Source: Naegleria gruberi
Lineage: Eukaryota
DNA length: 64,000 nt
Direction: 5' to 3' (one strand)
NCBI GenBank assembly: GCA_000004985.1
Contig: GG738901.1
Part shown: in pieces, positions 1-57,872 of the stretch
Layout of the letters: every line of letters begins with the position of its first letter
How positions within the stretch are numbered: the stretch's first letter is position 1
Translations under genes and position numbers: made by a program
Notes under the pieces: generated by a model
Database searches by the model: none
Seen by the model: only the letters and a program-made list of their open reading frames with translations
Told to the model about the DNA's origin: nothing

Positions 1-392
1 ACAATAATTGCAATTAGTAATTCGAAAGTGGAAGAATGTCGAACCTAATCACCACTCTTTTTTTTAAAAATGATTTTTGACGGAATAAAAGAAAAGTCAA
101 GATGTGCGATTGTTTTCGTTCTAAATGACGTTGACTTGACCGTTGGTGGATTGATATTTCCTGAATAATAAGTTTAGAATATTTTGTTCGAAACGTGGGA
201 GAGAAGGTTTTTGAATAAGGTATGTTTATTATTTTTGAGGTTTTGATAAGGGTACTAGGACAAAGGCTATGTAAAAAGAAGGTGAATAGCGTTCGGGGCA
301 ACATTATGCGAATGATTCGGTTTAGAATAAATGTTATTGTAAACACATTGTGAGCTTTGCAACTTTACAATGCACTCACTCCATCAATAAAA

Positions 393-630
393 AAAGTGAC
401 AGAAGTTTACAGGTTGACCTTTTTTCACAGCAATCCAATCTACCTAACTTCTGCCACCCAGTAATATCTATTATATTTCTAATTGTTTGTTTGCCGAATA
501 GATTGCTGAACAAGTTTCACTGGATGTCATTTCCTATATATTTAAAAAGAATTGTGAGGGAAATATTTTGGTTTTTCTAATTTTTTGATCAGTTTCTTTC
601 CAAATTGAACTTTCTTAATAACAAGTTTGT
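393..630. repeat. Dispersed ~240-bp repeat, copy A (divergent)
   Basis: AAAAAGTGACAGAAG...TTTCACAGCAATCCAATCT.CCT.A.TTCTGCCACCC...TTGTTTGTTTGC.GAATAGATTGCTG...ATATTTTGGTTT.TCT.ATTTTTTGATC.GTTTCTTTCCAAATTGAACTTTC. Shares both ends and the first ~110 nt with copies B and C. The middle ~40 nt is replaced. Confidence 0.7.
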
Positions 631-758
631 CATTCAATACAATAATAAGGATTGACATCTAACTAAAATTCATAAAGTAATGTTCATGAGGGCATTACAA
701 TTTTTATTAAGGAATGTAGGGAGTCAATTATTTATAATGTGAATTTTAAGTAATGGAA

Positions 759-880
759 TGGCTACGGCCATATCACGATGAATGCACCTCATCCAGTCCG
801 ATTTGAGAAGTTAAGCATCGTCGAGCCACATCAGTACTGAGGTTGGAGACAACTTGGGAACCTGTGGTGCTGTAGTCTTT
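759..880 (+). rRNA. 5S ribosomal RNA, copy 1
   Basis: About 120 nt, ...GGCTACGGCCATATCACGATGAATGCACCTCATCC(A)GTCCGATTTGAGAAGTTAAGCATCGTCGAGCC...GGGAACCTGTGGTGCTGTAGTCTTTT. It matches the universal 5S core (CGGCCATA...CCCGTCCGAT.TG.GAAGTTAAGC...GGGA.ACC..GGGAA.CC.GGTGCTGTAG) and ends in a T-run typical of a Pol III terminator. The ends are approximate to within about 5 nt. Confidence 0.85.
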
Positions 881-899
881 TGCATTTTACCATCCATCT

Positions 900-962
900 T
901 CTATTTTTTAACAGAACGAGAAATCATACCAGATGAATCCTCACAGTAAAAAATGGAGAAGG
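900..962 (-). repeat. Short conserved element (~60 nt), copy 1
   Basis: Its reverse complement, TTGCCATCCTTCTCCATTTTTTACTGTGAGGATTCATCTGGTATGATTTCTCGTTCTGTT, matches 57712-57772 (+) at about 85%. Confidence 0.6.
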
Positions 963-1411
963 ATGGCAATACTGGATTCTTACTAAAACAGAAACTCGTT
1001 AATAATTCAATAATGTTGAAATGAAGTTTCAATTTCGAATTATAAGAATATATGAAACCAAAATTTGCACCAAGCAATACAGCTTGCCAAATGTTCAATA
1101 AATACAATTGGTCCAACCTTTTCAATTCTTCAACAAAACCTTACTGAACCAACAAGATTCTGTCTTCGTTGCCTTCACTGTTCATACAGTCAAAGACTGT
1201 AGCGGGATTGTTGCCATATTCCTGGCAGGCTTCCCGTCCAAAATAATAATTGAAATGTTATATGGCCTTAATATTTATTTATCCAAGTGTGCAATTATAA
1301 ACTTAATCAAGGAACATATGAGGATACTAAGGAAGAATGTAACAGAAATAGTGACATGAAACTCATTTATTTCATAATGTTTCAAAAGAATTGTTTTCCC
1401 GAATTATTCCA

Positions 1412-2528
1412 TTAATTTAATTTAAACATTCCTTGAATTTCCTTGGCAGAGTAGGCTCCTTCTAAAATCTTCTTCTCCTCTTCAGTCAATTGAATTTCCA
1501 ATGCTTGAACATTGAGCTCAACATTAACAGCCTTTGTTGCACCAATTACTGGACTTACAACTCCAGGCTTGGAAAGCAACCAAGCAAGTGCAATTTGAGC
1601 TGGAGAAACGTTTCTCTTCTTGGCAATTTCTGAAACTTTTCTCAAAGTTTCCTTATCACCTTCAGTCAAATTGCCCTTAAATATGGTTTGAACAATATCA
1701 CTATTTTGTCTCTTGGAACCATTTTCAGCAGTTTCGGTTGCATTCTCCTCAGCATTGACAAAATCATGAGCGCGAGCTAACATTCCATTAGAAAGTGGTC
1801 CCCAAGGAGTGAGTGAAACTCCTTGATCAACACACAATGGATTCATTTCTCTCTCCTCTTCTCTATAGATGAGATTGTAGAGATTTTGCATGGAAATGAA
1901 TTTAGTCAATCCCTTCTTCTCAGCATAATGTTGAGCTTTGGCAAATTGCCAAGCAAACATAGTAGAGGCACCAATGTATCTGACCTTGCCAGATTTAACC
2001 AAATCATGGAGAGCTTCCATGGTTTCTTCAATTGGTGTTTGTTCATCCCAACGATGGACAATGTACAAATCAATGTCTGTTTCAATTATTCATTTCAAAT
2101 CACAAGAAGAAATTCAGAAAAAACTTACAATCAAGACCCAATCTTTGCAATGAATCATCAACTGCATGCATAATGTGCTTTCTGGAAAGACCCATGGTAT
2201 TTGGTTTGCCTTGATTACCAACCATAATGAGCTTTTGTTCACCAGAATGATCCAATGGTCCACAAACTTTGGTTGCAACCACAATTTCCTCTCTTGGAAT
2301 GTTGAATTCCTTAATGAACTTGCCCAAAATTCTCTCACTTTCACCATTAGAATACATATCAGCAGTATCAAAGAAATTAATGCCCAAATCCCATGCCTTC
2401 TTCAAAATTCTTAATGATTCCTCTTCTTCCAAAACCCAAGGAATCCACTTGGAAGATCCAAAGCTCATGCAACCCAAACAAAGTTGAGAAACCTTCAAAC
2501 CACTTTCACCCAAATTGACGTATTTCAT
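1412..2528 (-). CDS. Aldo-keto reductase (aryl-alcohol dehydrogenase / Kv-beta-like), 2 exons
   Basis: Exon 1 (2528..2131) has MKYVNLGESGLKVSQLCLGCMSFG...FFDTADMYSNGESERILG...LGLD. A GTAAGT donor follows. The intron spans about 2077-2130. Exon 2 (2076..1412) has YIDLYIVHRWDEQTP...KVRYIGAS..., so the spliced junction LGLDYIDLYIVH is the classic AKR motif. Confidence 0.85.
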
Positions 2529-2892
2529 ATTGTATTGACTTGCTATTGAGAACTGTTAGTTGTGCAGATAGAATTAAATTCAAAAACTAGTTGTGAATTT
2601 GTTTTTTTGTGTTTGGAATGAGAGTTTGGTTTCAAAGCCAAAATTTAAACAGAAAATTTATACTTTTAATTCTGCGCGCATGATTCTGGTTGATTTGTGC
2701 TTATATTTGAACGAGCAGAATTATGATCATTATTGAAAGAAGTGGAACTACAAACACGATTCAAAAGATCCTAATAATCACGAATCTTGAGCTTGGAAAG
2801 ATCATCCATCCAAATGATATTTACACCATGTTGACTTTTTGATGCTGATACCATTACATTTGAAAGTAGTTCACTTTCCAGTTCAAAAAAAA

Positions 2893-4194
2893 ATGAAACC
2901 ACTACTCTTGTTAATTTTATTTTTTACAATATTTTCCACAACAGGCGCAGCAAACTTTGTGATAACTTCCCCACCTTCCTCTCGTCAAGTGTTGAAATGG
3001 CCATTTGCTGCCTGGTCAATTTGGAATTTACCTATAGGAAATAATGCAAGTTATGAATTTGGAAATATTTACTTGCCCAACACTGCAACCATAGAGGCAG
3101 ATCCTGATATTATTGTATTAAATTCATCAAATCCGTTAACACCAATCTATTATTCATCAGCAGCTTGGACTGGGGCTTCACGTTGTCAGGCATCAAGTTC
3201 AACAATTATCACAAAAGTTCCCTTCCCAAGTGATTTTATAGTTGCATCAGATGGAAGTAATTATTCTGGTGCTTTTTTAATGCCAGATAATGTGACAATC
3301 GTACAGACTCAACCAATTTGTCATTGTACTAATAGCACACAAACTTCAAATGTCACAACACTTACAAAAACTATCAGTGTCAGTATTTATGGAGATGGCG
3401 CTTATGGATCCCATGGAGGTTCTGGATTATCATCCATTGGTGGTACACTTAGATTGGGAGAATTAATTCCAGACTCCAATGGAACTGTTCATCCAGTACG
3501 TCATGCTTTGAAAGGTAATCTTTGGGCTGTTTACAATTACTACAGAAATGGAAGTGCTGTTTCGAGCTGTTTCAGGTGGCCAGCAACTGGTTGTGATGGA
3601 TATTTTGCTGATGGTAAATCAGATCAATATGGAGGTACTAATCCATATGTTCGTCCTGGTTCATTGCTCGCTCTTAACACCAGTATTAATATTAACAATT
3701 TGGGATTAAAAACAATTCCAGGATTGGCCATAGCTTGGACATTACAAAATTATGGAATGTATTTGGCAGATGATAGTTATTGGAATGCAGCTGCTTTAGA
3801 AACAGAGATATCTCCAGAGGGAAATTATGTAACACAATTTAAAAAAGCATGGAATATGGATTTTACTTCAAGTACTAATGCTTGGGCAGTTGACGTTCGT
3901 TCCTTATTTAGAATGTTATCAGTTGTTAATAGCTGGAATAAGAATATGTGGTTGAATGTATCATCTTCCAATGGTACATTGGGCGCTGGTGGAGGATTTC
4001 CATTACAGAGCTGGGCACCACCATTTGCAAATGATTCTAATATTGCTACACCTGTTAGTAGCAGTTTCATCCATACGAGCTCTAATTCTCCAAAGAATTC
4101 AACCCTTGCAAACAATCAAAGAAGTATTAATGCATGTAATTTAACAACAATAATATTGGCTATAGTTTTAATTATTTTGTGCATTCAATGGTAA
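2893..4194 (+). CDS. Secreted/cell-surface S/T-rich protein, unknown function
   Basis: Starts at MKPLLLLILFFTIFSTTGAANF, a signal peptide. The body is rich in N-glycosylation sequons. The C-terminus is hydrophobic (TTIILAIVLIILCIQW), which could be a GPI signal or a TM segment. I recognise no catalytic family. Confidence 0.55.
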   Translation: MKPLLLLILFFTIFSTTGAANFVITSPPSSRQVLKWPFAAWSIWNLPIGNNASYEFGNIYLPNTATIEADPDIIVLNSSNPLTPIYYSSAAWTGASRCQASSSTIITKVPFPSDFIVASDGSNYSGAFLMPDNVTIVQTQPICHCTNSTQTSNVTTLTKTISVSIYGDGAYGSHGGSGLSSIGGTLRLGELIPDSNGTVHPVRHALKGNLWAVYNYYRNGSAVSSCFRWPATGCDGYFADGKSDQYGGTNPYVRPGSLLALNTSININNLGLKTIPGLAIAWTLQNYGMYLADDSYWNAAALETEISPEGNYVTQFKKAWNMDFTSSTNAWAVDVRSLFRMLSVVNSWNKNMWLNVSSSNGTLGAGGGFPLQSWAPPFANDSNIATPVSSSFIHTSSNSPKNSTLANNQRSINACNLTTIILAIVLIILCIQW

Positions 4195-4327
4195 CTAAAC
4201 AATAAATTGAATGAGCAATGGTTGTTTTGAACAATGTTTTTAGGCGACCTAACTACTAATCTTTCACAGTAGATTAAGATTGCAGAACGATTTATATGAT
4301 TTATATTACGAAACTTACTTACATGGA

Positions 4328-4449
4328 TGGCTACGGCCATATCACGATGAATGCACCTCATCCCGTCCGATTTGAGAAGTTAAGCATCGTCGAGCCACAT
4401 CAGTACTGAGGTTGGAGACAACTTGGGAACCTGTGGTGCTGTAGTCTTT
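4328..4449 (+). rRNA. 5S ribosomal RNA, copy 2
   Basis: Near-identical to copy 1 (I see one substitution, CCCGTCC here against CCAGTCC in copy 1). Same orientation, followed by CTTTTCTTTTT. The flanks are unrelated, so each 5S is a discrete unit. Confidence 0.85.
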
Positions 4450-4671
4450 TCTTTTTGATCCTTTTCATTGTTTTTTATAAATTGTGAATTAGTATGAATT
4501 AACTTCCAATTTATTCACCACCAATTAGCATTTCTGTGGCACAGATATTTCATACGATAATTACACGCCATAGGTGTTCTAAATCGTGACTATGCCTTTG
4601 TGTCCATATTTCATTTCCGATTTATCAAAACCACAAGCAAAATTCATGGAAATTCTTTTATTCTCTATTGT

Positions 4672-4920
4672 TTATGGCAAACCTGGCCAATTATCAACAT
4701 ATTGAATTTTAAAATCTGGCCAATTATCAACAATTTGAATCTTATAATCAGGCCAATTATCAACAATTTGCCATTTTCCAACACTATCAGGCCAATTATT
4801 GACCTTTTGAACCTTGAGATCTGGCCAATTATCAACAATTTGGACTTTGTAATCTGGCCAATTATCTACGAATTGAATCTTACCATAAATTTTGGCAATT
4901 TGATCTTTGGAAAGTGTCAT
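4672..4920 (-). CDS. Small tandem-repeat protein, 7 copies of an 11-aa [KQ]IQIVDNWPD[YF]K unit
   Basis: 82-aa ORF with a 33-nt tandem period. The W-P-D codons are held constant while third positions vary (ccagat against cctgat), which is consistent with selection on the protein rather than a recently expanded minisatellite. Confidence 0.4.
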   Translation of the reverse strand: MTLSKDQIAKIYGKIQFVDNWPDYKVQIVDNWPDLKVQKVNNWPDSVGKWQIVDNWPDYKIQIVDNWPDFKIQYVDNWPGLP

Positions 4921-5196
4921 TTCTTGTTTTTTTATTCTGTTGTTTTGATCAACACGGATATCACACCATGTGATGATTTTAAAGGAAAATTAGAAGTGTT
5001 ACATAGCTGTTCGATTTCACAATAGTTCCTGGTTGATCTTCGAGGATTTTCTGACAATTGTAAAACGTATTTGCTTGTTGGAATTGAAGTTACATATTAC
5101 ATTGTAAAATTGGTTCAATCTGATTGTTCATGAATTGCTGCACTGTACAGAATCTAACACCAAAAGTTTTCATTTCAGGGCTGCAAAATAATTTCC

Positions 5197-8100
5197 TTGA
5201 TCATCTGTAAAAAAATGAACGAATTGCTAACTACTACCAACAACCACAAGAACATTCTCACCTATTTTTATGCACCCATCAATGATTGTACAAATATTAA
5301 TTCATCATCATCAGCATCGGAACCATTTTCCAACAAACATGAAAAACATGAGGATGATGATCTTAATTTAATTGCTAATAAATCGACAAAAGTAGTACGA
5401 GATATTTTCCTATTTGAAGAATGGAGATTAATTGCAAGTTTTTTGACGAGGAAAAATTGTTTTGGAGGCTTGGCAAGTGTAAACAAAACTTCAAGATTGG
5501 CAGTTTTAAGTGTACATTTTATTAGAAATAGTGCAGTGATTAAATCATTTGCACTTCGTTGGATTTGGGCACAAACTATTGATAGTTATTCCGATAAATT
5601 ACCAAATAATAGATTTATTGAAATATTAAAACCACTTCAGGAGGAATATTATGATTTGCACCAATTTATACAAGATCCAAATCAAGAAAAGAGTGAAAAT
5701 TACTTTCCAATACCAAATTATTATTCACGTAATCTTGTAAAGGCAGCATGCAGTGTTGGAAATAACGAAATTATTTTACAATTAATTGAAAAATCATTTT
5801 TATTTGATTTGAGCACAGTAACACCATCAAAGTATTATGATTTGGCATTCTTGAATGGACATTATGATACAGCTGTTGCTTTTGCTAAAACTTTACTTTT
5901 AAGAAATGGAGAATTGGATATTTCCAAATGTATTCCTCAAATAATTTCTCCATTCATTGCACCAATTGAATTTGAAAATCAATATCAAATAGTCTATCAA
6001 TTATTTAACAGATCTCAAACACATTATCAATTGGGAATTAGTAGAATAATTTATGAATTATTACATTCACAACTTTTACAAACATGCCATGAGGAAGCTT
6101 CTAAAATTGGTTGGACTAATTTATTAGATATTGCTCTTTTTAATTTGCATTTCCCACAACTATTAATGCGAAATGATATTGAGTCAGTTCAATTTATTGT
6201 TGGACGTTTATATCAAAATAGAAAAGAAAACAATACTCTTCCATTATTTTCAAATGATTTGGAAAGAATCCTCATACAAATACAATCACTGGATCAAGTT
6301 GATTTTCTTGTATGGTTCTTTGAATATATAGGAAGTTTGGGAGAGTTGACATTATTATCGGATTTAATATTTAACAATTTGAATACTATTTTAACTATTA
6401 ATACTAAATTTTTAGATATTTATTTGAATCAATTTCATGGAAGACATGTTGAAAATGATGAAAAAAGACTCTATGAATATATGGATGGTTTGGATACCAA
6501 CTATCTTAATTTGATATCTCTTTTGGGAATTACTAAAATACCATACGAGAGGATTGCAAAACATTTAAACTCATGTGCACAGTACTATTTGGTTAATTAT
6601 GGTAATGTAATTGTTCAATATTATGAACCAGAAATTGCAACAATCATCTTTAATAACATTCAACTCTTCCTTGATGATACAAAGATTCATCCAAAGAAAC
6701 GTTCGCTCTGTTTAACACCAAGAGTACAAACAGATCTTGTTAATTTATTTCTCAAACAGGAGATTGTAGATTGGAAACTAATTGTAGAATTTATTGAAAA
6801 GAATCCATTCATGTCCAATTTTATGGAAATTATAATTTCAAATGCCTATGATTCGTTTACAAGAACAATATTGGATAGAATTTACTCAACTTCAGACTCT
6901 GAGAATTATTCATCCAGAAGAAGATTTATATTCAAATCCTTTACTAGATATATTGAGAAGGATGTTTATGACTTTTGTGCCTTGTTAATGTTTGCATGCA
7001 CAGTTGAAAAGAGTTTTATGAAAGCTTTGATAGAAAGGAATGAATTTTTAATATCAAAGATTCATGCCTCATTTGAACCATTTCAAAATGTTAGTCAAAT
7101 GATTGAAAGATGGAACGATGGTTCATTTGAATTAATTTCACATGATTTGCCTGTTTTGGACTGTCTTTGTAATAGTTCGTTGAAGGTATTTGTAAATGCT
7201 ATTGGTTCTCTATGGCCACTTTCTAATAATTTCCTCAGTTTGACATTTAAAATTCTCGATGAGTCATATGAACCTATCGTAAGAAATAACATTAATGATA
7301 TTAGAAACATTATCCGACATTTCATTACATCAAGTCATGATATTGATATTATAACATCATACTTCAAAACGACAATTCATCAGGAGGAAATTTTAAATGT
7401 TCTAATGGGATTACCACTATTTACGAAAGATAATTTGTTAAATATTTCAACATCGGTTTTAGCAAGAACAAAATTAACACTTTCAAGTTTAGATACGATT
7501 GTTAACATTATTCACGATCATTTTGATGATGTTCTAGAACAAAAATTCAAAGATTACATTACCATTCCACAAGATAATTTATCACAACTCATTTCTATCA
7601 AATACCATCCAAAATCAATATCATTACTTGAAAGAATTTCATATAGACATTTATTTGAACCTTCATATTTGTCATTCTTTGAACAAATTGAAAGTGTATG
7701 TGGAAGAGGAAGTATGGTTTCATCTGATAGTGCACAAGCCTATTGGAATGCATCCAGTGACCCTTATCTCTTGTTAAATGATAGAGATACTATTATGAAT
7801 CTACTTTCAAAATATGAAACTATTCCTAAAACAAGCAAGTGGAGATCAATTCTTACAGGTCTAGTTAATCATGGATTTATTGATGAACTATTGGAAAGAT
7901 TAGCGGAAAAAGAACATCGTAAACCAATTCTTTTTGAAAATTCTCCTCTTTTCACTTTAACAAGTTCATTTGGAAATATTTCTACTTCTTCTGAATTTCT
8001 ACAAGAAAATAGAAAGAAGGAACAACAATCAGAAAGAGAAAAACAACTCTCCTATGTTCAAGCTCCTCCTCTATTTAATTTTACTTTTGATTTTGGAAAT

Positions 8101-8274
8101 TCCAATAATAATAATAATAATAATGGAAACTCATTTATTTTCCTTTCTAAGAATGAATCAAACAGTGGAAATAGTAGTAGTGATGGTTTGGAATTACACT
8201 CATCTAAAGCACCCCCAACTAATTATTCACACACAACATTACCATTTAATCAATACCTACAGTTCAAGCAATAA
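5197..8274 (+). CDS. Large hypothetical protein (1025 aa), possible N-terminal F-box-like segment, N-rich C-terminus
   Basis: Long uninterrupted ORF. The segment RDIFLFEEWRLIASFLTRKNCFGGLASVNKTSRLAVLS has F-box-like hydrophobic spacing, but the match is weak. The tail is poly-N. Confidence 0.55.
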   Translation: MIICKKMNELLTTTNNHKNILTYFYAPINDCTNINSSSSASEPFSNKHEKHEDDDLNLIANKSTKVVRDIFLFEEWRLIASFLTRKNCFGGLASVNKTSRLAVLSVHFIRNSAVIKSFALRWIWAQTIDSYSDKLPNNRFIEILKPLQEEYYDLHQFIQDPNQEKSENYFPIPNYYSRNLVKAACSVGNNEIILQLIEKSFLFDLSTVTPSKYYDLAFLNGHYDTAVAFAKTLLLRNGELDISKCIPQIISPFIAPIEFENQYQIVYQLFNRSQTHYQLGISRIIYELLHSQLLQTCHEEASKIGWTNLLDIALFNLHFPQLLMRNDIESVQFIVGRLYQNRKENNTLPLFSNDLERILIQIQSLDQVDFLVWFFEYIGSLGELTLLSDLIFNNLNTILTINTKFLDIYLNQFHGRHVENDEKRLYEYMDGLDTNYLNLISLLGITKIPYERIAKHLNSCAQYYLVNYGNVIVQYYEPEIATIIFNNIQLFLDDTKIHPKKRSLCLTPRVQTDLVNLFLKQEIVDWKLIVEFIEKNPFMSNFMEIIISNAYDSFTRTILDRIYSTSDSENYSSRRRFIFKSFTRYIEKDVYDFCALLMFACTVEKSFMKALIERNEFLISKIHASFEPFQNVSQMIERWNDGSFELISHDLPVLDCLCNSSLKVFVNAIGSLWPLSNNFLSLTFKILDESYEPIVRNNINDIRNIIRHFITSSHDIDIITSYFKTTIHQEEILNVLMGLPLFTKDNLLNISTSVLARTKLTLSSLDTIVNIIHDHFDDVLEQKFKDYITIPQDNLSQLISIKYHPKSISLLERISYRHLFEPSYLSFFEQIESVCGRGSMVSSDSAQAYWNASSDPYLLLNDRDTIMNLLSKYETIPKTSKWRSILTGLVNHGFIDELLERLAEKEHRKPILFENSPLFTLTSSFGNISTSSEFLQENRKKEQQSEREKQLSYVQAPPLFNFTFDFGNSNNNNNNNGNSFIFLSKNESNSGNSSSDGLELHSSKAPPTNYSHTTLPFNQYLQFKQ
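8104..8125. repeat. (AAT)n microsatellite inside a coding region (poly-Asn)
   Basis: AATAATAATAATAATAATAAT encodes NNNNNNN in the 5197-8274 ORF. Similar (CAA)n and (AAT)n runs recur in the 13884-16187 and 37147-38611 genes. Confidence 0.8.
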
Positions 8275-8360
8275 ATGAATTTATTTTACAAGAGAATAAA
8301 ATGTTGAAGCAACGTATTGCGAATTCTTTTTCCTTCACCATAAAGATAATAGCCGTATTG

Positions 8361-8602
8361 AGAAAAAAGTGACAGAAGGTTCAGGCAGATCTTTTCACAG
8401 CAATCCAATCTTCCTGATTTCTGCCACCCATAGAATACTTGGTATATTTCTTAATTGTTTGTTTGCTGAATAGATTGCTGGTATTATTAGTAAGGATAAC
8501 AGTTCCAATATGTTTTAAAAGAAATGCGAGAGATATATTTTGGTTTATCTTTAATTTTTTTGATCGTTTTCTTTCCAAATTGAACTTTCATTAAGGCTGC
8601 AA
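8361..8602. repeat. Dispersed ~240-bp repeat, copy B
   Basis: About 90% identical to copy C over its full length by eye. It lies in the intergenic space between two convergent genes. Confidence 0.8.
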
Positions 8603-8642
8603 AGTTGGTATGCTAAATGGTTTTATTAAATCAATTAAATAC

Positions 8643-9736
8643 TTAGAATAGAAAGGTAATATCAGAAAATTTACCAGATAAACATATACTCCAAAGGTTG
8701 TTGAAATATCTAGTTAATTGATAACCTTTCGAATAGATAAGCAAGCACGCTGTATGTGCAACAATACCTATTGACTGGTAAGTATGGTGTGGGAAATATT
8801 CGGTAATATCAAACTTAGTACTTTTGGATACCATATCGAAGAGCAGGACATTGGGATGATTCTTTGGTACAATGATAAGTGGCTCCTTAAATAACATTAC
8901 ACTCTCAACCTCTGTCCCATCGAATGGATAGATTGAATCTATTGTCCTATTTCCATACAGTTTAAACGTACCATCTTGAGCAGCCACAAGTGTCTTATTC
9001 GAAGAGCAAGAGAATGATCTAATTGGATAATCTAGCGAAACATAAGTAAATGATCCAGGAATTTGACGATCCGACAAGGTTTGTCCACAACTTGATGAGC
9101 CAGCAACCAAAAATCGATGATCTTTCAAATAGGCAACAATGTGAAAATTTCTCCCTTGATATCAACTATATCCTCATCTGATATGAATTGAGAAGTATTC
9201 CAATCTAAACGCGTAATGGTGGCATTTGAAGAGAGCCAATTCTGTCCACTGATTCTAATATTTCTCCTATTTATCACACAACAAGAAAATGAAAAGCAAC
9301 ATGCAATATGAGTAATTTTCTCTTCATCTTTTGGCTCAAAAATCATTCTGACATCCACTCCATTACTATTCCCCAAACAATCATAATCGTTTGTACCCTC
9401 TCCATAGAGCAATGTCTTGCCACCTCTTTTCAAATCCTTCACCAAATAAATACTACAAGATGTATAGCTATCAATAAATGTTACCAGTAACCCCTGATCA
9501 ACTCCAAATTGTTTAATAAATTCACCAGAGAGTTCTTGTTCAAAACCTGCTGGACGATCCTCTGAAGATTTCCAAACTCTTCCCGAATTAAATAAAAGTC
9601 TAATTTTTGGTGTTGGGACTCCATAGGCTATTCCTTGAATAATATGCTCATTCGGAAGATGATCTTGTATTAGGTAGGATTTTAATTTTTCTCCAGCGAG
9701 ATCATCATTAGGTTTGTATGCATAGTAAATGATCAT
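8643..9736 (-). CDS. RCC1-like repeat protein with an apparent +1 frame break near 9125-9128 (possible pseudogene or sequencing frameshift)
   Basis: Two adjacent same-strand ORFs (9736..9125 and 9128..8643) carry RCC1-like repeats (LLYGEGTNDYDCLGNSNG; GQNWLSSNATI). The frames differ by 1, and no intron-sized GT..AG spans the junction. Confidence 0.45.
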
Positions 9737-10123
9737 TTTTTTTGTAATGACTTTTGATTTAATTCTAAGAATGATATAAAGTGCAAAGAGCTAATTGAAA
9801 TTCAATGTTAGAATTAGCATGTGGGATCATCAATAATCATCATATTCATAAGACTTTTCTATTCCAACAGAAAAAGGTCAAAGTTTAGAATAAGTCAAAT
9901 TCCTACTGGAATGGTTCATAATTTTATTACAAAGATCCTCCCTTTTAAAAGGCCGTTCTAGTTCACATTTAAAACATACGTCCTAAACTTGCATTTCTTC
10001 CTCAACAAAATAGTACGCACGCTCAAAAAACAATATTTCAACTCTCATGATAGTACACAATAACAAACCATTAAACAAAAAACACATTACTCTAAAACAC
10101 ATAAAAACAAACACATCAGAACA

Positions 10124-10759
10124 ATGGCTATTAAAGTTTATGGATATGCTGCAGCACTTTGCACTCAACGTGTTTTGGCAACATTGAAGGAAAAACAATT
10201 GGATTACGAATTGATTGTTGTTAATTTGGCCTCTGGAGAACAAAAGCAAGCTCCTTACATTGAAAAACAACCTTTTGGAGTGATTCCAGTTCTTGAAGAT
10301 GGTGAATTCACTATTTATGAATCACGTGCTATCTGTAGATATTTGGAAAACAAGTACAAGACCAGTGGAAATCAACTCATTCCAACCAATCCTGAAGAAT
10401 TGGGTTTGTTCGAACAAGGTGCTTCTATTGAAACTTCCTATTGGGATCCAAATGCTTCTGCTATTTTATTTGAAAAAATTTTCAAGGCCATGAAGGGTTT
10501 AGGTGAAGCCGATGAATCAAGAGTTAAGGTTGCAAGTGAAAAATTAGCTCAATATTTGGATGTTTACGAAAAGATTTTGAGCAAACAAGAATATATTGGT
10601 GGAAATCAATTTACTCTTGCTGATTTGTTCCATCTTCCTTATGGAAGTCTCTTGTTCGTGCCTCAAGTTAATTTTGGTCATTTGTTATTGGAACGTCCAC
10701 ATGTTAAAACTTGGTGGGAAAAGATTACTTCTAGACCTGCATGGCAAGAAGTTGCTTAA
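10124..10759 (+). CDS. Glutathione S-transferase
   Basis: MAIKVYGYAAALCTQRVLATLKEKQLDYELIVVNLASGEQKQAPYIEKQPFGVIPVLEDGEFTIYESRAICRYL. This is a thioredoxin-fold GST N-domain with the conserved cis-Pro/ESRAI motif, followed by a helical C-domain. Single exon. Confidence 0.85.
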   Translation: MAIKVYGYAAALCTQRVLATLKEKQLDYELIVVNLASGEQKQAPYIEKQPFGVIPVLEDGEFTIYESRAICRYLENKYKTSGNQLIPTNPEELGLFEQGASIETSYWDPNASAILFEKIFKAMKGLGEADESRVKVASEKLAQYLDVYEKILSKQEYIGGNQFTLADLFHLPYGSLLFVPQVNFGHLLLERPHVKTWWEKITSRPAWQEVA

Positions 10760-11093
10760 TTGCGTTAAATTTGTAAATTAAAAATATTTTTTGTAAACTT
10801 TACAAAATTTACTCATCGAAAAGTTCCTACACTATACGTAAACATTCAAATCAATTGTTTCTTGAATGCGTCAGTATTTCTCTTTCAAAAAGAACTTGAG
10901 AAATAGGAGAGCACTATCAATTAATTTGTGAATCTTTAAACACCTCTCTGAGTATATTTTCAGCAGAGTATCTCAATGATTCATTTCTCTCTTTTGAAAT
11001 CAAATTGCTAACTGATGAATTTGTAAATTTTCAAAATATCTATAATTTACAAACATTTCCAACTTATTATAATCTTTCAGAATTTTTTGTATC

Positions 11094-13120
11094 TTAATAA
11101 TGTCTTTGTTGACCACTCCAAAAGGTACAACTAGGTCTGAAATCTTCTTGTTGTGCATACATTTGACATCCCTTAAATGCCTCCTTTTCCATAGCTGTAA
11201 TTATTGAAGTATTTGGTAAGACTTTTGTAATTGTTGTAATCCAATTTTCTTCCGGCTTAACAACTATCACAGGAGTATTCGTGGAAACTAGCAATTGGTT
11301 AAGAGATTTTTTAAGCTCCTTTTCTAATGAATTCACAATGCAACTATCTCCATCAAATGATTGATAGTTGGCAACCTTACTAATGGTGATATGTACATCC
11401 TTCTCTATAACAACACAATTTGGAATGTTATGGTAATAAGCTATCATTACATGTCTTGATATGAAGCAAACAGCTGGTACTTGAGTATTGAGAGTCACAT
11501 TAATGAACTGTGCAAAGTTCCTCTTTTTGAGAAGGTAGGGTGGGATTGAAATTAACAGTGGATGCCTTGGTGAGATAACTATTTGATCACAAATTTTGGA
11601 AAAGAATGTTCCAACATTAAGTTCATGGATATGTCGATAATCGTCATCAGGATCATTTAGATAATCAAATACAGACCCTTGATGGGATCCTATTTTACCA
11701 ATCATAGCATCAGAGTAACTGTAAAAATTAAAGCTATAATTGAGGTGTTAATATTAGTGAATGAAATTAAGATTACTTACTGAACACCACTGTTTCTGCC
11801 AACGTATGGTTCCACTGTGTTTGGTGTTTCAACATTGAAAAGGCCATAGGTTGCCATCTCACTTGTAAAATCGATGCAAATAGCTTTGAAAGAATGTTCT
11901 GTGAAATTTCGAACTCTGACATGATGATACCAATCAATAGGTATGCCACTTTCACATAATTTACGGAAAGTGGTGCCATTCCAATATTTTTGATAGACTG
12001 ATTTCCAAATAATTGGTGATCGTGCAAGTTGATTCAAATATCTATTCAATGGTAAAACTATTGAGCATATTTCACTCTCCTTAAGAAAAGAAAATACGGT
12101 GAAGATAATCTCTTCTGGAAGAATTGTCAAATTGTTTTGCTCGATATTCTCTACAAGACCCTCTGGAATAAAGTAGTGTCTATTCAAAAGATATTCAAAG
12201 GTCTTTCCACTATCAACTAGCATCTGTTGTCCAGCTAAATAACTTTCTGAAGCAGCATAAACATCTCCATTCTTTTCCAATCTTTCGCTCTCTTTGAATA
12301 ATTGGCCAATTTTTTGATATGCCTCTGATTGCTCGAATTTTTCATCTCTTGGAATTGATAAAGAATCAACTCTGAGATACATAATTTCAGTTCTCAAAAT
12401 ATACTTGGTTCCTTTTGTTACAGGACAACCTTCATGATAAAAATCCTGATTGAAAAGAGCCAATTGACCCAATGATGGTTTTAAGGTATGCAAGAGACTG
12501 TATTCTTCAAAGTCAGAGTCTGTCTTTGTTGGATCATTGTAAAATCTTGTTTCTCCCCCTTTAAAATCCTGATTCAGATAGATCAGTAATGTGTAAATAC
12601 TTCTCTCATGCTCACTCCTTCTGAATTGACCATCAGTGTGTATTTTGAAATACTCTCCTGGTTCATACTTGCTTAATCTCATCATTTCATTAATTCCACA
12701 AGCTTTCCATTCACCTCTGCTATCCAAACCATAAGGAGTAATCAATTTTCCAATAGCATCTAAATCAATCGTCTCTTTGAGACGTTCAAATATTAGTTTT
12801 GCAAACTCCTTATCAGTAATCAGCTCCCTAGAAGCATTTCTATACTCCTTCGGATATTCATCTTCCAGGTTCTTAAAATCATTACACCTCTTGATCATAT
12901 CATTACACTCTTCACTGGTAAAAAAGTTCGGAATGGCCATCAATCTGTTCATACAAGTCTGATGGATTGGATGTTTTACTTTCGACAGCTTGGTCTCAAA
13001 TGATCGGGATGAAAATTGAACAATTTCATGGACTGGCAAAAGATCGCCTGGCTCAATAATAGAAAACTTTGTCTTGTGGCGAATATCGCGTTCCTTTCCC
13101 CTCGCATGTTTGTTTCCCAT
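11094..13120 (-). CDS. Prolyl-4-hydroxylase-like 2OG-Fe(II) oxygenase fused to an F-box domain, plus a C-terminal ~200-aa extension (2 exons)
   Basis: N-terminus MGNKHARGK could be a myristoylation site. The P4H core is ...YFKIHTDGQF (HxD)...IYTLLIYLNQDFKGGETRFY...FYHEGCPVTKGTKYILRTEIMY (distal His plus 2OG-binding K/R). The F-box reads LPEEIIFTVFSFLKESEICSIVLPLNRYLNQLARSPIIWKSVY. The ORF ends GVQ followed directly by GTAAGTAATC. The intron spans about 11718-11779 and ends TTTTACAG. Translation continues in frame through the 11705..11094 ORF (SYSDAMIGKIGSHQG...). Confidence 0.7.
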
Positions 13121-13367
13121 CTCAAAAAATTTGCGTGGTTTTTACAAGGTGAATTGTTGCTGAATTTTTTTGTTTTGGAAAAAAGTGCGCAAGTGATATG
13201 TGAAGGAACTTTAAAGTACATGATACGGCTAACATTTGTTCAACTAAATACATGTTCTTATCAACATACACTGTTGGTGTTCCGAGTTGAAATCAGATTC
13301 AATAAAATGAGGAAACAGCTGTCCTGTAAAACATTGTAACAACACATTGATTCATGAATAAGAAAAA

Positions 13368-13616
13368 AGTGAGAAAAAAGTGACAGAAGGTTCAGGCAGA
13401 GCTTTTTTCACAGCAATCCAATCTTCCTGATTTCTGCCACCTATAGAATATTTGGTATATTTCTTAATAGTTTGTTTGCTGAATAGATTGCTGGTAATGT
13501 TAGTAAGGATAACATTTCCAATATGTTGTAAAAGAAATATGAGGGATATATTTTGGTTTATCTTTAATTTTTTGGATCGTTTTCTTTCCAAATTGAACTT
13601 TCATTAAGGCTCCAAA
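13368..13616. repeat. Dispersed ~240-bp repeat, copy C
   Basis: About 90% identical to copy B. It lies between the 5' end of the P4H/F-box gene and the 3' end of the N/Q-rich gene. Confidence 0.8.
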
Positions 13617-13883
13617 ATTAAACAATTTTCACAATTCAATACTTTCTTCTTAAATTCTAACAAAACATAAAAAATTTATTGATTGTGAACGCAAGTTAAG
13701 ATACACTCTCTTATGTGGACTGTTCAACAACACGGGTGTGGATTGGAATTGCTTTCTATGTGTGAAAAATTCAAGTATTAACCAATACAGACACATATTG
13801 TTGAATACAGCAAAATTTGTTGGACTATTTACAATTGTTTGGGTTGATTAGTTGATAAATTGTTGAGAGTACTACTCTGAATA

Positions 13884-16187
13884 TTATTGATTAGCAAAGA
13901 ATTTGTAGTACTTTTGATTTGGATTCTTTGATTTAAATTTGTACTCATCATAAATGTTGTGTCTCAAAACATATTGAGGCATGTAGTTCTTCTTACTAAA
14001 CAAAGCTTGTTGTTGTTGAAGAGATAATTCACCAGTATTGGTTGCATCGATGAATGTGAAATTGCCAGAGGATTGTTCCATATTTTGCATTTGCATTGGT
14101 TGTTGCATATTTTGCATTGTGTCATTAGTTTGAGGTGACATGGAGGCAATTGGAGAAGATTTCTTTCTAGCTTGTTTTTCAAATGCAACTTGAATATTAC
14201 CATCACTTTGACTTCTCTTCTTTCTATTTTCAACATTTGTAATCTTGGCAATGTTTGGTGAAACAACAGTTGCGTTTTGTTTAACATTTCCTTCATCATC
14301 ACAAGAGTAGGTATGGAATTGAAGTGAATTAGTTCTCTTATTTGAGGCTGCCATTTGCTTTCCAATGAGTACATTAGCAGATCCAGATCTAGATCTTGAA
14401 TTACTCCTAGTAGATGATGCAGTTGACATTGCATTAGAAATATAGGAAGTTGTAGGACTTCCATATGCAGTATTGTTAAAAGTATTTGGAGAGGATGAAT
14501 TTGACATGGATGGTGAAGGAATCATCATTCCCATAACAGGAGATGATGGTTCTGACATGGTATACAAATTTCCAACTCCATTTCCTCTATTAAATTGTTG
14601 TTGTTGTTGTTGTTGGATAACAATACCATTATTATTCATCATTTGATTATTAGTTGTCGCGCCATTAAACATGATTTGATTATTATTAGGGAAATTAACC
14701 ATAGTAGTGTTGGTATTTGGTGAATTATTACCACTGCCACTACCACCATTATTGTTAAACATGATATTTCCACCACCCATCAAATTACTGTTATTTGAAC
14801 TACTTCTGACATGAATATGTTTTTGTAAATTAATTGAACCTGATTGAGTAGAATCAATACTCATAACAGAAGAGGTAGAATTTGAACGCTTTTGTCTACC
14901 TGCCATTCTAATCAAGTTATTTTCAACCTTCTTAACTGGGAATTGATTATTGACAACCATTGAAGGTGATTGTGGAGTACCAACACTCATACTCATATTT
15001 TGGAATGGATTGATAAAAGTAGTTGGTGAGTTATTACCACTATTTGGAGTTGAAATCATATTATTATTATTAGTAGAAATAGCCATATTATGTTGTTGGG
15101 TATTCACCATCATGTTTTGTTGTTGCAATTGTTGCTGAATGGATAATTGATTCATAGATTGCATCATCATTAACATATCAACAGAATTATTAGAAGCAGT
15201 ATTATTAGCAGCATTATTAAAACCAACCAATTGTTGTGGTTGATGATAATTAGTTGCCTGTTGATGATTTACCATCATATTAGCAGCTGCATTATTAAAA
15301 CCATTATTATTATTAATATTAATATTATTCATATTATTATTCTGTTGTTGTTGTTGATCAAAGCCTTGAATTGGTAACATGACCAATTGGCCATTATTAT
15401 TATTACCATTGTTATTCGTACCAACTAGATGATTCTCTTGCTTGACTACAAAGTTTGTTTGCAAATTTCCAATCACTTGATGTCCGAGTGGACCAAACGA
15501 AATAACGCCATTATTATTATTATTATTAATAATATTGCTGTGTTGTGCGCCTACTACAGTGTTGTTTGCGTTATTGTTGTTGATAATATTATTGCGTTGT
15601 TGTTGTTGTGCTTGTTGATGATGATGAACGTTGGAAACTTGCAAACCGAGAGAGGAATCATAATCACTCAAGGCTTGATCAATTTCCTTATAGTAGAAAT
15701 CATTAGGGTTTTCATGTTGTTGTTGTTGTTGGTGGTGATGAGAAGCAATATTGAAATTATTGGCAGAGCCTTCATCGAGCAAGGAAGTAGTACTACTACC
15801 TTGTTGTGAATCGAATGGATGAGCAGAATTTCCCACCTGTTGTTGTTGTTGTTGACTTGCTGTGGAGGTTGAATAGAGTGAATGTTGTTGTGGTTGATTG
15901 TGTGAAGTATTGCTATAATTATTATTAACATGAGTTGGTTGGTCAAAGGAACCGAAAGTGTTGGAATCCAAATAGGAAACACCATTACCAGTGGCAGATT
16001 GTGAAAATTGAGAGTTTGTTGGATTATTAATGAAAGAATTCATGAGGTCATGTGTGGAAGTTTGTGAGAGGAGTAATTCAAAGTCATCAGTGTCAATAAA
16101 GTCATCTTCAATATTGTTGTTATCATTGAGAGAGGAAACAACCGACGAAGAAACACCAAGAGAACGATAAGGATCTTCGTTAGACAT
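13884..16187 (-). CDS. N/Q/S-rich low-complexity protein (767 aa), possibly a nuclear regulator
   Basis: Long ORF with poly-Q, poly-N and poly-H-Q runs and an S-rich tail. I recognise no folded domain. The codon periodicity is maintained throughout. Confidence 0.5.
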   Translation of the reverse strand: MSNEDPYRSLGVSSSVVSSLNDNNNIEDDFIDTDDFELLLSQTSTHDLMNSFINNPTNSQFSQSATGNGVSYLDSNTFGSFDQPTHVNNNYSNTSHNQPQQHSLYSTSTASQQQQQQVGNSAHPFDSQQGSSTTSLLDEGSANNFNIASHHHQQQQQHENPNDFYYKEIDQALSDYDSSLGLQVSNVHHHQQAQQQQRNNIINNNNANNTVVGAQHSNIINNNNNNGVISFGPLGHQVIGNLQTNFVVKQENHLVGTNNNGNNNNGQLVMLPIQGFDQQQQQNNNMNNININNNNGFNNAAANMMVNHQQATNYHQPQQLVGFNNAANNTASNNSVDMLMMMQSMNQLSIQQQLQQQNMMVNTQQHNMAISTNNNNMISTPNSGNNSPTTFINPFQNMSMSVGTPQSPSMVVNNQFPVKKVENNLIRMAGRQKRSNSTSSVMSIDSTQSGSINLQKHIHVRSSSNNSNLMGGGNIMFNNNGGSGSGNNSPNTNTTMVNFPNNNQIMFNGATTNNQMMNNNGIVIQQQQQQQFNRGNGVGNLYTMSEPSSPVMGMMIPSPSMSNSSSPNTFNNTAYGSPTTSYISNAMSTASSTRSNSRSRSGSANVLIGKQMAASNKRTNSLQFHTYSCDDEGNVKQNATVVSPNIAKITNVENRKKRSQSDGNIQVAFEKQARKKSSPIASMSPQTNDTMQNMQQPMQMQNMEQSSGNFTFIDATNTGELSLQQQQALFSKKNYMPQYVLRHNIYDEYKFKSKNPNQKYYKFFANQ

Positions 16188-57420: not shown

Positions 57421-57711
57421 TTTTTTAATTTTTTTGTAATTGACCATTTTTGGAAGTAAATTTTTTTCTTCAGGTTCAATAATTTCAAGTACTTTATTTT
57501 CATTAAAAACAACACAAGACCATAATTTCTGTACTGTTTTACCAACCAATCTCAATTGTTTTTAAGGAGAGTTTGATTTGCACCGATTGGTTTCTTCATA
57601 CTTACCTTGAAGGACATTTCAGTGATCATGCAGACTGAAATGTGACTCTGGAAACTCTCCTCCTTGCACTCTGAGGATGAGTCCAGAATTTGGTCAATGA
57701 TCAAAGTGATT

Positions 57712-57775
57712 GTTGCCCTCCTTCTCAATTTTTTTCCTGTGAGGACTCATCTGGTATGATTTCTCGCTCTATTCA
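57712..57775 (+). repeat. Short conserved element (~60 nt), copy 2
   Basis: TTGCCCTCCTTCTCAATTTTTTTCCTGTGAGGACTCATCTGGTATGATTTCTCGCTCTATT. It is paired with the 900-962 (-) copy and sits immediately downstream of a structured inverted-repeat region at 57560-57665. Confidence 0.6.
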
Positions 57776-57872
57776 GTAATTGAAACTTTAGGTCATTAAC
57801 TCTGATATTTAATCTATCAATCAAGAAATATCAGATTTGCATTTGAAAGGTTGAAAGTGTTAATACTCCAAT

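Follow-up and report, generated by a model that had tools for sequence, protein, structure and literature searches.

What kind of unit is the short repeat that occurs three times in a 64-kb stretch of the Naegleria gruberi genome (64,000 nucleotides of contig GG738901.1, assembly GCA_000004985.1; hereafter the window)? The repeat, called R here, was found as three direct copies of ~250 bp, all on the plus strand, non-coding and located between genes. R is read here, tentatively and at somewhat less than an even chance, as a dispersed element without coding capacity or autonomy that is specific to the N. gruberi complex and fits none of the classes recognisable by their termini (SINE, MITE, solo LTR and canonical Helitron, all discussed below); families of RNA genes and a relic of local duplication were weighed as alternatives. 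The copies are as follows:

388-642, plus strand: copy A, the oldest and most diverged, with a divergent core of ~20 nt at 510-529 and small indels
8358-8612, plus strand: copy B, between the convergent genes X and g
13368-13621, plus strand: copy C, between the start of a 2-oxoglutarate (2OG)-oxygenase/F-box gene and the stop of open reading frame (ORF) Y

Copies B and C were 93.9% identical over 247 nt in BLASTN (E 2e-105), A and C were 81.7% identical over 235 nt (E 2e-50), and A and B 80.6% (E 7e-45). The same picture was obtained by repeat finding, MAFFT alignment and an nhmmer profile built from the copies, and the profile detected no fourth copy or fragment across the 64 kb. The dispersed family of three intergenic copies that had been proposed in an initial annotation, made from the sequence alone, was thus recovered by four methods. 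Its figure of ~90% identity for B and C was too low (94% measured), its copies share their ends as described with similarity reaching slightly further at the coordinates given above, and the core of copy A, described as replaced over ~40 nt, is indeed divergent, over ~20-25 nt. Within this core (510-529) 8 of 20 positions are identical, and outside it every 20-nt segment of A has 70-90% identity. Divergence among the copies is therefore graded, from 5.5% between B and C to 19% for A.

All copies begin with (T)(G/A)A-GAAAAAAGTGACAG and end with ...GGCTSCAAARTT, and outside these sharp shared ends their flanks are unrelated. The termini are conserved, with invariant blocks of 16 and 22 nt, and the interior is variable, as the core of A illustrates. 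The GC content of R is 29-32% (33.5% for the window). The longest invariant block is located as follows:

8568-8589 (also 593-614 and 13581-13602), plus strand: TTTCTTTCCAAATTGAACTTTC, near the right end, which includes AATTGAACTTT, a motif found elsewhere in the window just once, 11 nt past the U1 snRNA gene

Homology reaching upstream of R was weak and inconsistent (p 0.01 for A against C, p 0.09-0.15 for the other pairs), and the spacing of this weak similarity varied from 22 to 41 nt, even between orthologous sites.

The three copies were found in different contexts, namely on the upstream side of a 5S rRNA gene (A), between convergent genes (B) and in the gap between the tail of one gene and the head of another (C). 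Two 5S rRNA genes were identified with Rfam (100-105 bits):

760-878, plus strand: 5S rRNA gene copy 1
4329-4447, plus strand: 5S rRNA gene copy 2

Copy A ends 118-140 bp ahead of 5S copy 1, in agreement with the ~130 bp of the initial annotation. Copy B follows the stop of ORF X (5197-8274, plus strand) by 84 bp and is separated by 31 bp from that of gene g (8643-9736, minus strand), and the neighbours of copy C are the start of the 2OG-oxygenase/F-box gene (11777-13120, minus strand) and the stop of ORF Y (13884-16187, minus strand). No R accompanies 5S copy 2, no 5S remnants adjoin B or C, no tRNA genes occur in the window, and neither B nor C is near any gene of the RNA polymerase III (Pol III) class. 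No paralogy was found among the proteins flanking R, which removes the explanation that the copies are 3' untranslated regions of paralogous genes; this was the check named in advance as able to overturn the repeat, and with unrelated neighbours and three differing contexts the repeat reading survives it. Both 5S genes are terminated by a T4 run. Their similarity (727-911 and 4296-4480) includes ~33 nt of flank on each side and amounts to 85% over 185 nt.

The ORFs within R, 65-79 aa long on the minus and 51-76 aa long on the plus strand, had been regarded as artefacts of the repeat. In agreement with this, no homologue was recovered when 5.8 billion proteins and 1.8 billion cluster representatives were searched. 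The 79-aa minus-strand ORF gave zero matches as a probe, and the 51-aa plus-strand ORF gave two weak multi-stretch matches (E 2e-6 and 3e-4) that were judged compositional. Among the covariance models of Rfam 15, none matched R at the gathering threshold, at E <= 5 in a search space of 15 kb or at E <= 10 in 1.1 kb, although the search was sensitive enough to recover a diverged U1 gene of the window at E 1e-9. R is thus not an annotated family as far as Rfam is concerned, and the literature held nothing relevant on its sequence blocks or in descriptions of Naegleria repeats.

R has one pronounced structural feature, a hairpin at its left end. On the minus strand, the left ~70 nt of R form an interrupted hairpin of 21-23 pairs with a loop of ~20 nt, which is followed directly by a run of six or seven T:

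390-459, minus strand: copy A hairpin and T7; 23 pairs, 5 of them G.U; -23.9 to -24.2 kcal/mol
8363-8429, minus strand: copy B hairpin and T6; 22 pairs; -24.1 to -24.4 kcal/mol, z-score -3.2
13374-13442, minus strand: copy C hairpin and T6; 21 pairs; -24.0 to -24.4 kcal/mol, z-score -3.2

The short GGCAGA...TCTGCC hairpin of the initial annotation was found to be part of this larger structure. In copies A, B and C and in a copy from a relative (contig L001, described below) the stability was -24.2 to -24.4 kcal/mol (z -3.15 to -3.43), whereas the complementary plus-strand RNA of the same segment reached only -16.3 to -17.3 kcal/mol (-16.5 for B), which gives the minus strand an advantage of 7.1-8.1 kcal/mol. 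G.U pairs in the stem number 2-5 when it is read from the minus strand and 1 when read from the plus strand. This asymmetry in G.U pairing and stability suggests that it is the minus strand that matters, whether as RNA or as single-stranded DNA. The hairpin is also maintained: that of copy A differs from that of C by 8 substitutions and one indel, yet is equally stable, and when an equal number of changes was simulated, the mean stability was -15 to -16 kcal/mol and only 1.8% (starting from C) or 5.2% (starting from A) of the simulated sequences stayed as stable. Compensatory pairs among the four R sequences numbered just 1-2. The whole of R folds no better than shuffled sequences on either strand (z 0.08 and 0.97), and almost no covariation was found across it with RNAalifold. 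A scan for bacterial-type terminators, with a loop limit of 8 nt, did not flag the R hairpins. Two further internal features are invariant:

8398-8480 (also 428-440/496-508 and 13411-13423/13481-13493): CAGCAATCCAATC, located in the hairpin loop, and its complement GAATAGATTGCTG, separated by 57 nt
8535-8546 (also at 563 and 13548), plus strand: ATATTTTGGTTT, resembling the Sm site AUUUUGG, in all copies

Since the complementary arms of the first feature, CAGCAATC in the hairpin loop and GATTGCTG at the site 57 nt off, are invariant, they provide no covariation evidence. The second, ATATTTTGGTTT, is placed by structure prediction in the loop of a hairpin of 6 bp, for which one compensatory U-A/A-U change was observed in copy A.

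A relative of the window was available as L001, a metagenome contig from the European Nucleotide Archive (ENA) of an N. gruberi-like strain whose coding DNA is 0.5-2.4% diverged from the window. The glutathione S-transferase (GST) gene of the window (10124-10759) has its best named matches in Naegleria and a 96%-identical match, P0001, on this contig; P0001 clusters at >=90% identity with XP_002682524.1 of N. gruberi NEG-M, and another contig of the same ENA sample encodes a protein identical to a different NEG-M protein. These matches place the window within the N. gruberi complex. L001 aligns to positions 9942-13616 of the window (95.7%) and then, by way of its R, to 8361-9737 (98.8%), so that its R joins the left flank of copy C to the right flank of copy B. 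This R is itself a mosaic, C-like at 6 of the 8 sites informative for B and C up to alignment column 152 and B-like at 6 of 6 from column 165. The gene order is accordingly Z-GST-ORF203-oxygenase-R-g in L001 (1-5358) and X-R-g-GST-ORF203-oxygenase-R-Y in the window. The first ~476 nt of L001 (gene Z) are not in the window, and homology begins in the GST upstream region at ~9921-9942, which marks a second breakpoint. Between R of L001 and its mosaic parents ~2% of sites differ without indels; in the pooled flanking intergenic DNA 4.4% (36/824) differ, with ~89 gap columns.

The two gene orders are explained either by recombination that moved a 5-kb cassette or by a chimeric metagenome contig. 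Because B and C share no exact stretch longer than ~38 nt, an assembler working at k=127 is not expected to jump between them. The alignments suggest that recombination at the R copies has shifted a 5-kb block with four genes (g, GST, ORF203 and 2OG-oxygenase/F-box). If L001 is real, the simplest account would be that this ~5-kb block was moved by recombination within R, either through circularisation and integration at another R or through unequal crossing-over, and both routes would yield exactly the mosaic polarity that was observed. Two details of the same comparison concern the neighbourhood of the copies. At the left edge of copy C the 11-nt GAAAAAAGTGA is present twice in tandem (13362-13372 and 13373-13383), a duplication missing at the orthologous site of L001. 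Gene g (8643-9736, minus strand) is one ORF of 364 aa in L001, whereas the window has it broken into two frames that overlap (8643-9128 and 9125-9736); the split corresponds to a single 1-nt gap in the coding alignment and may be a frameshift, a sequencing error or the mark of a pseudogene.

In the other DNA that was scanned, R was not encountered. A scan of metagenomes of the Joint Genome Institute (JGI) with the invariant 19-mer TTTCACAGCAATCCAATCT returned 9 loci, all of them chance matches of 19-24 nt in GC-richer contigs. No R was found in viral contigs scanned with two other invariant blocks, in ~58 kb of N. fowleri and other heterolobosean loci, or in two further ENA contigs, and the loci of GST homologues from N. 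fowleri and from a JGI contig showed neither synteny nor R. A concatenated query of X, g, Y and ORF451 returned only the N. fowleri orthologue of X (24% identity), whose locus lacks synteny; the long query was possibly handled poorly, since the known g protein of L001 was not returned. The N. fowleri locus examined for the GST homologue (VFQX01000009.1, 10001-13765) contains that gene, followed by a tRNA gene at 11083-11163, a 5S rRNA gene at 11724-11842 and a gene resembling a DDE_Tnp_4 (Harbinger-type) transposase at 13037-13765, with no R-like sequence. Dispersed 5S genes near GST are thus present in a second Naegleria species.

A non-autonomous dispersed element fits these observations best, since discrete ends are shared in unrelated contexts, the copies are of graded ages, and conserved ends enclose a variable interior; the non-coding nature of R, its lack of a global RNA structure and its restriction to one lineage fit best with such an element as well. 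R would then have been copied as a discrete unit of ~250 bp into at least three unrelated intergenic sites, copy A early and the B/C lineage later. The terminal stem-loop and T-run of the minus strand may have served as the signal for the machinery that copied or terminated R, for which a reverse transcriptase binding the 3' stem-loop or a hairpin-dependent single-strand enzyme of the rolling-circle/HUH type would be candidates, and the dispersed copies could subsequently provide the homology for ectopic recombination.

Several points weigh against a non-autonomous dispersed element. No transposase or reverse transcriptase was found in the window, whose genes are ordinary eukaryotic ones (aldo-keto reductase, GST, 2OG-oxygenase with F-box, eIF4E, cyclophilin and calpain). 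No empty site was seen, as the relative has an occupied site at each of the two junctions that were compared. The three copies are confined to one strand and to 13 kb, in the vicinity of two 5S genes of the same strand, which fits a local duplication equally well. The lower divergence of R between strains hints at constraint, though not significantly (about p = 0.09). It has been reported that the transposable-element content of Naegleria is very poor, at 0.13-0.28% (bioRxiv 10.64898/2026.06.24.734286). To these must be added the missing hallmarks of the known element classes, which were examined one by one.

Miniature inverted-repeat transposable elements (MITEs) resemble R in being ~250 bp long, AT-rich, non-coding and intergenic, with conserved termini, a variable interior and copies of several ages. 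They differ in their terminal inverted repeats (TIRs) and target-site duplications (TSDs), which are missing at all three copies of R: no inverted pair joined the ends even with a 6-nt seed, and with a fixed-length TSD, TAA was found on both sides only in C (2/3 in B, 1/3 in A). The absence of both features had been stated before, and the recommended TSD search, run on the three copies, returned none. Short interspersed nuclear elements (SINEs) share with R its size, its non-coding nature and its dispersed copies, and one R copy adjoins a Pol III gene. SINEs are, however, distinguished by A and B boxes, a 3' tail and a TSD. At the three copies of R neither an A-rich or simple-repeat tail at either end nor a TSD in the flanks was found, and R contains no A box and no A or B box above chance. 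The B-box candidate of the initial annotation, GGTTCAGGCAG, departs from GGTTCRANNCC, the B-box consensus, at three of its nine specified positions; with this many mismatches, ~650 matches per strand are found in the window, or ~1 per 100 nt, the candidate is not conserved in copy A, and the best B-box-like 11-mers in R have 3 mismatches on either strand, so that the resemblance is at chance level. A T4-T6 run follows ~15 nt downstream of GGTTCAGGCAG, and the plus strand of R holds 4-5 runs of at least four T, the first ~30 nt from the left end (one internal T4-5 run on the minus strand). Given these internal runs and 5S genes that end at T4, a plus-strand Pol III SINE is untenable.

Solo long terminal repeats (LTRs) of Pol III-targeting retrotransposons, such as Ty1/Ty3 and the DGLT-A/TRE elements of Dictyostelium, are similar to R in size, and R can be read as TGACAG...CTTTCA after its purine run, with copy A ~120 bp upstream of a 5S gene. 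The TG (8369) and CA (8591) do exist, but the homology between copies runs ~10 nt beyond them on the left and ~20 nt on the right, no TSD of 4-6 bp was found with them, B and C are away from Pol III genes, and neither internal retroelement sequence nor a full-length element with such an LTR occurs in the 64 kb. Non-autonomous Helitrons and Helentrons come close in other respects, as they lack TIRs and TSDs and carry a subterminal hairpin ~10 nt from a T-rich terminus; in R, too, the minus-strand hairpin ends ~10 nt before the boundary and TIRs and TSDs are absent. Their 3' palindromes are typically far shorter than the R hairpin with its 21-23 pairs and ~20-nt loop, the 5'-TC and 3'-CTRR termini and the insertion between A and T were not found (the minus-strand termini of R are AAYTTTG... 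and ...CACTTTTTTC(T)(C/T)A), and no Rep/helicase partner of R was seen. Helitrons have been reported in the heterolobosean Acrasis (bioRxiv 10.64898/2026.06.24.734286).

Two other candidates were considered. A spliced-leader RNA was rejected, because copy A does not conserve the candidate GT donors and trans-splicing is not known to occur in Naegleria. Naegleria carries Fanzor2, and a Fanzor/IS607-type or IS200/605-type remnant was also considered; no TnpB-like ORF lies nearby. In summary, every criterion that could be tested speaks against a SINE, and R lacks the features that define MITEs, solo LTRs and canonical Helitrons. From the interpretation given in the initial annotation, an unclassified non-autonomous element or a non-coding RNA or regulatory module stands, with the first option the best, and the SINE/Pol III cue falls away.

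RNA genes had also to be considered, and here a small nuclear RNA (snRNA) gene at the other end of the window is relevant. The U1 snRNA gene at 57598-57767 (plus strand) starts with ATACTTACCTTG and scored 50.5 bits against an Rfam gathering threshold of 69.5 (E 1e-9 to 3e-11), and the default Rfam scan missed it. A search of the window on both strands gave only four occurrences of the motif AATTGAA(A)CTTT, in the R copies at 603, 8578 and 13591 and at 57778 on the plus strand. The last occurrence is 11 nt downstream of the U1 3' end, on the strand of U1, and ~0.36 occurrences are expected by composition; the motif may be a 3'-end signal or a coincidence. The longer pattern TTGAA.?CTTT.{0,5}CATTAA was found in the window only in B, C and the U1 flank. 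A U1 fragment of ~75 nt, 85% identical to 57711-57784, was also detected at 899-975 (minus strand), directly downstream of 5S copy 1 and missing after 5S copy 2. It comprises the last ~57 nt of the U1 gene and ~17 nt of its 3' flank, and because the flank is included it is a DNA-level duplicate and not a retropseudogene.

The maintained hairpin raises the alternative that R is a family of small-RNA genes on the minus strand, starting near AGCCTTAATGAAAG at the right end and ending with the hairpin and U6-7, an end that resembles a Pol III terminator or a 3' end bound by La, with copy A as an old diverged paralogue or pseudogene. Pol III RNA genes such as 7SK, U6, vault and ciliate telomerase RNA are comparable in their terminal hairpin with T6-7, in being multi-copy and in lying near 5S genes, and in all copies of R the T6-7 run that would act as a Pol III terminator does follow the minus-strand hairpin directly. 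The greater stability on the minus strand, its retention in copy A despite 8 substitutions and an indel, the single internal T4-5 run (against 4-5 on the plus strand) and the slightly higher conservation of R than of the flanking intergenic DNA between strains agree with such genes, as does a region that holds two 5S genes and the U1 fragment, where copy A on its minus strand is divergent from the 5S gene at 118 bp. In contrast to such genes, R matches no Rfam family even in the 1.1-kb search space at E <= 10, has no global structure (the whole unit folds like shuffles, and RNAalifold found essentially no covariation) and shows no promoter elements, the right flanks being without a conserved upstream one (p 0.2-0.4) and no A or B box exceeding chance. 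Moreover, with 5S genes that end at T4, Pol III would stop at the internal T4-5 run, ~90 nt into the putative transcript, and R was not found in the sampled N. fowleri loci. Small-RNA genes are considered the main alternative, if an unlikely one. A gene or pseudogene family of the Sm class, transcribed by RNA polymerase II on the plus strand like snRNAs, is very improbable. It would draw on an Sm-like AUAUUUUGG within the invariant ATATTTTGGTTT of all copies, on the restriction of AATTGAA(A)CTTT in the window to the three R copies and the downstream flank of U1, and on the distance of ~43 nt from the Sm-like site to this motif, akin to ~45-50 nt in U1. No snRNA family matches R, even though the diverged U1 gene was detected at E 1e-9; the 3' part of U1 shows no similarity to R past the motif; local alignment of U1 with R is not significant (p 0.3-0.7); and AUAUUUUGG is predicted inside a hairpin loop and not between stems, with no convincing 3' stem-loop after it. 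The upstream similarity is weak, with a spacing anywhere from 22 to 41 nt even between orthologous sites, and the motif coincidence was spotted post hoc, with an estimated p of roughly 0.1 after allowing for comparisons.

R could also be immobile. It might be left over from a local duplication, of a segment or of an array, where 5S genes are frequent (a former 5S spacer unit would be an example), or be a cis-acting module such as a terminator, a boundary or a recombination site that was duplicated along with rearrangements. In favour of this are the location of three copies and both 5S genes on the plus strand within 13.6 kb, with none in the other 50 kb, the position of copy A directly upstream of a 5S gene, the involvement of R in rearrangements in the L001 comparison, and the U1 3' fragment with its non-transcribed flank beside 5S copy 1, which is a DNA-level patchwork. 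Identical sharp boundaries with zero flank homology are, however, unexpected from segmental duplication followed by decay, neither B nor C has 5S remnants beside it, and 5S copy 2 has no R. Furthermore, the clustering and the common orientation reach only weak significance (about p = 0.11 and 0.25), and the three contexts have no common position relative to genes. An immobile R is judged rather improbable. Little credence is likewise given to a bolder proposal, in which R would be an undescribed hairpin-terminated heterolobosean element, either a small-RNA family or one mobilised by its stem-loop, that moves multi-gene cassettes via recombination between R copies and circular intermediates; the movement of cassettes would be seen in the differing positions of the 5-kb block in the window and in L001.

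Two further observations concern genes in the same part of the window. A tandem array at 4652-4908, with at least six 33-nt units (GGCCAATTATCAACAATTTGAA...), lies inside or overlaps the ORF at 4600-5025 and probably encodes an 11-aa protein repeat on one strand. The aldo-keto reductase (1412-2528, minus strand) is divided into two ORFs (2100-2528 and 1412-2068), and the ~31-nt gap between them is most likely a very short intron.

With three copies and no known hallmark, R is a real but modest finding. Naegleria genomes are compact. Only a small fraction of N. gruberi repeats has been classifiable (PMC12344493), and R gives the unclassified Naegleria repeats a concrete, testable example in the form of a defined 250-bp family with a maintained hairpin. 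If R is transcribed, it would be a new non-coding RNA in a deep-branching eukaryote. If the recombinant junction is real, short dispersed repeats would reshuffle gene order between very close N. gruberi strains, which would bear on how synteny and strain variation in Naegleria are interpreted.

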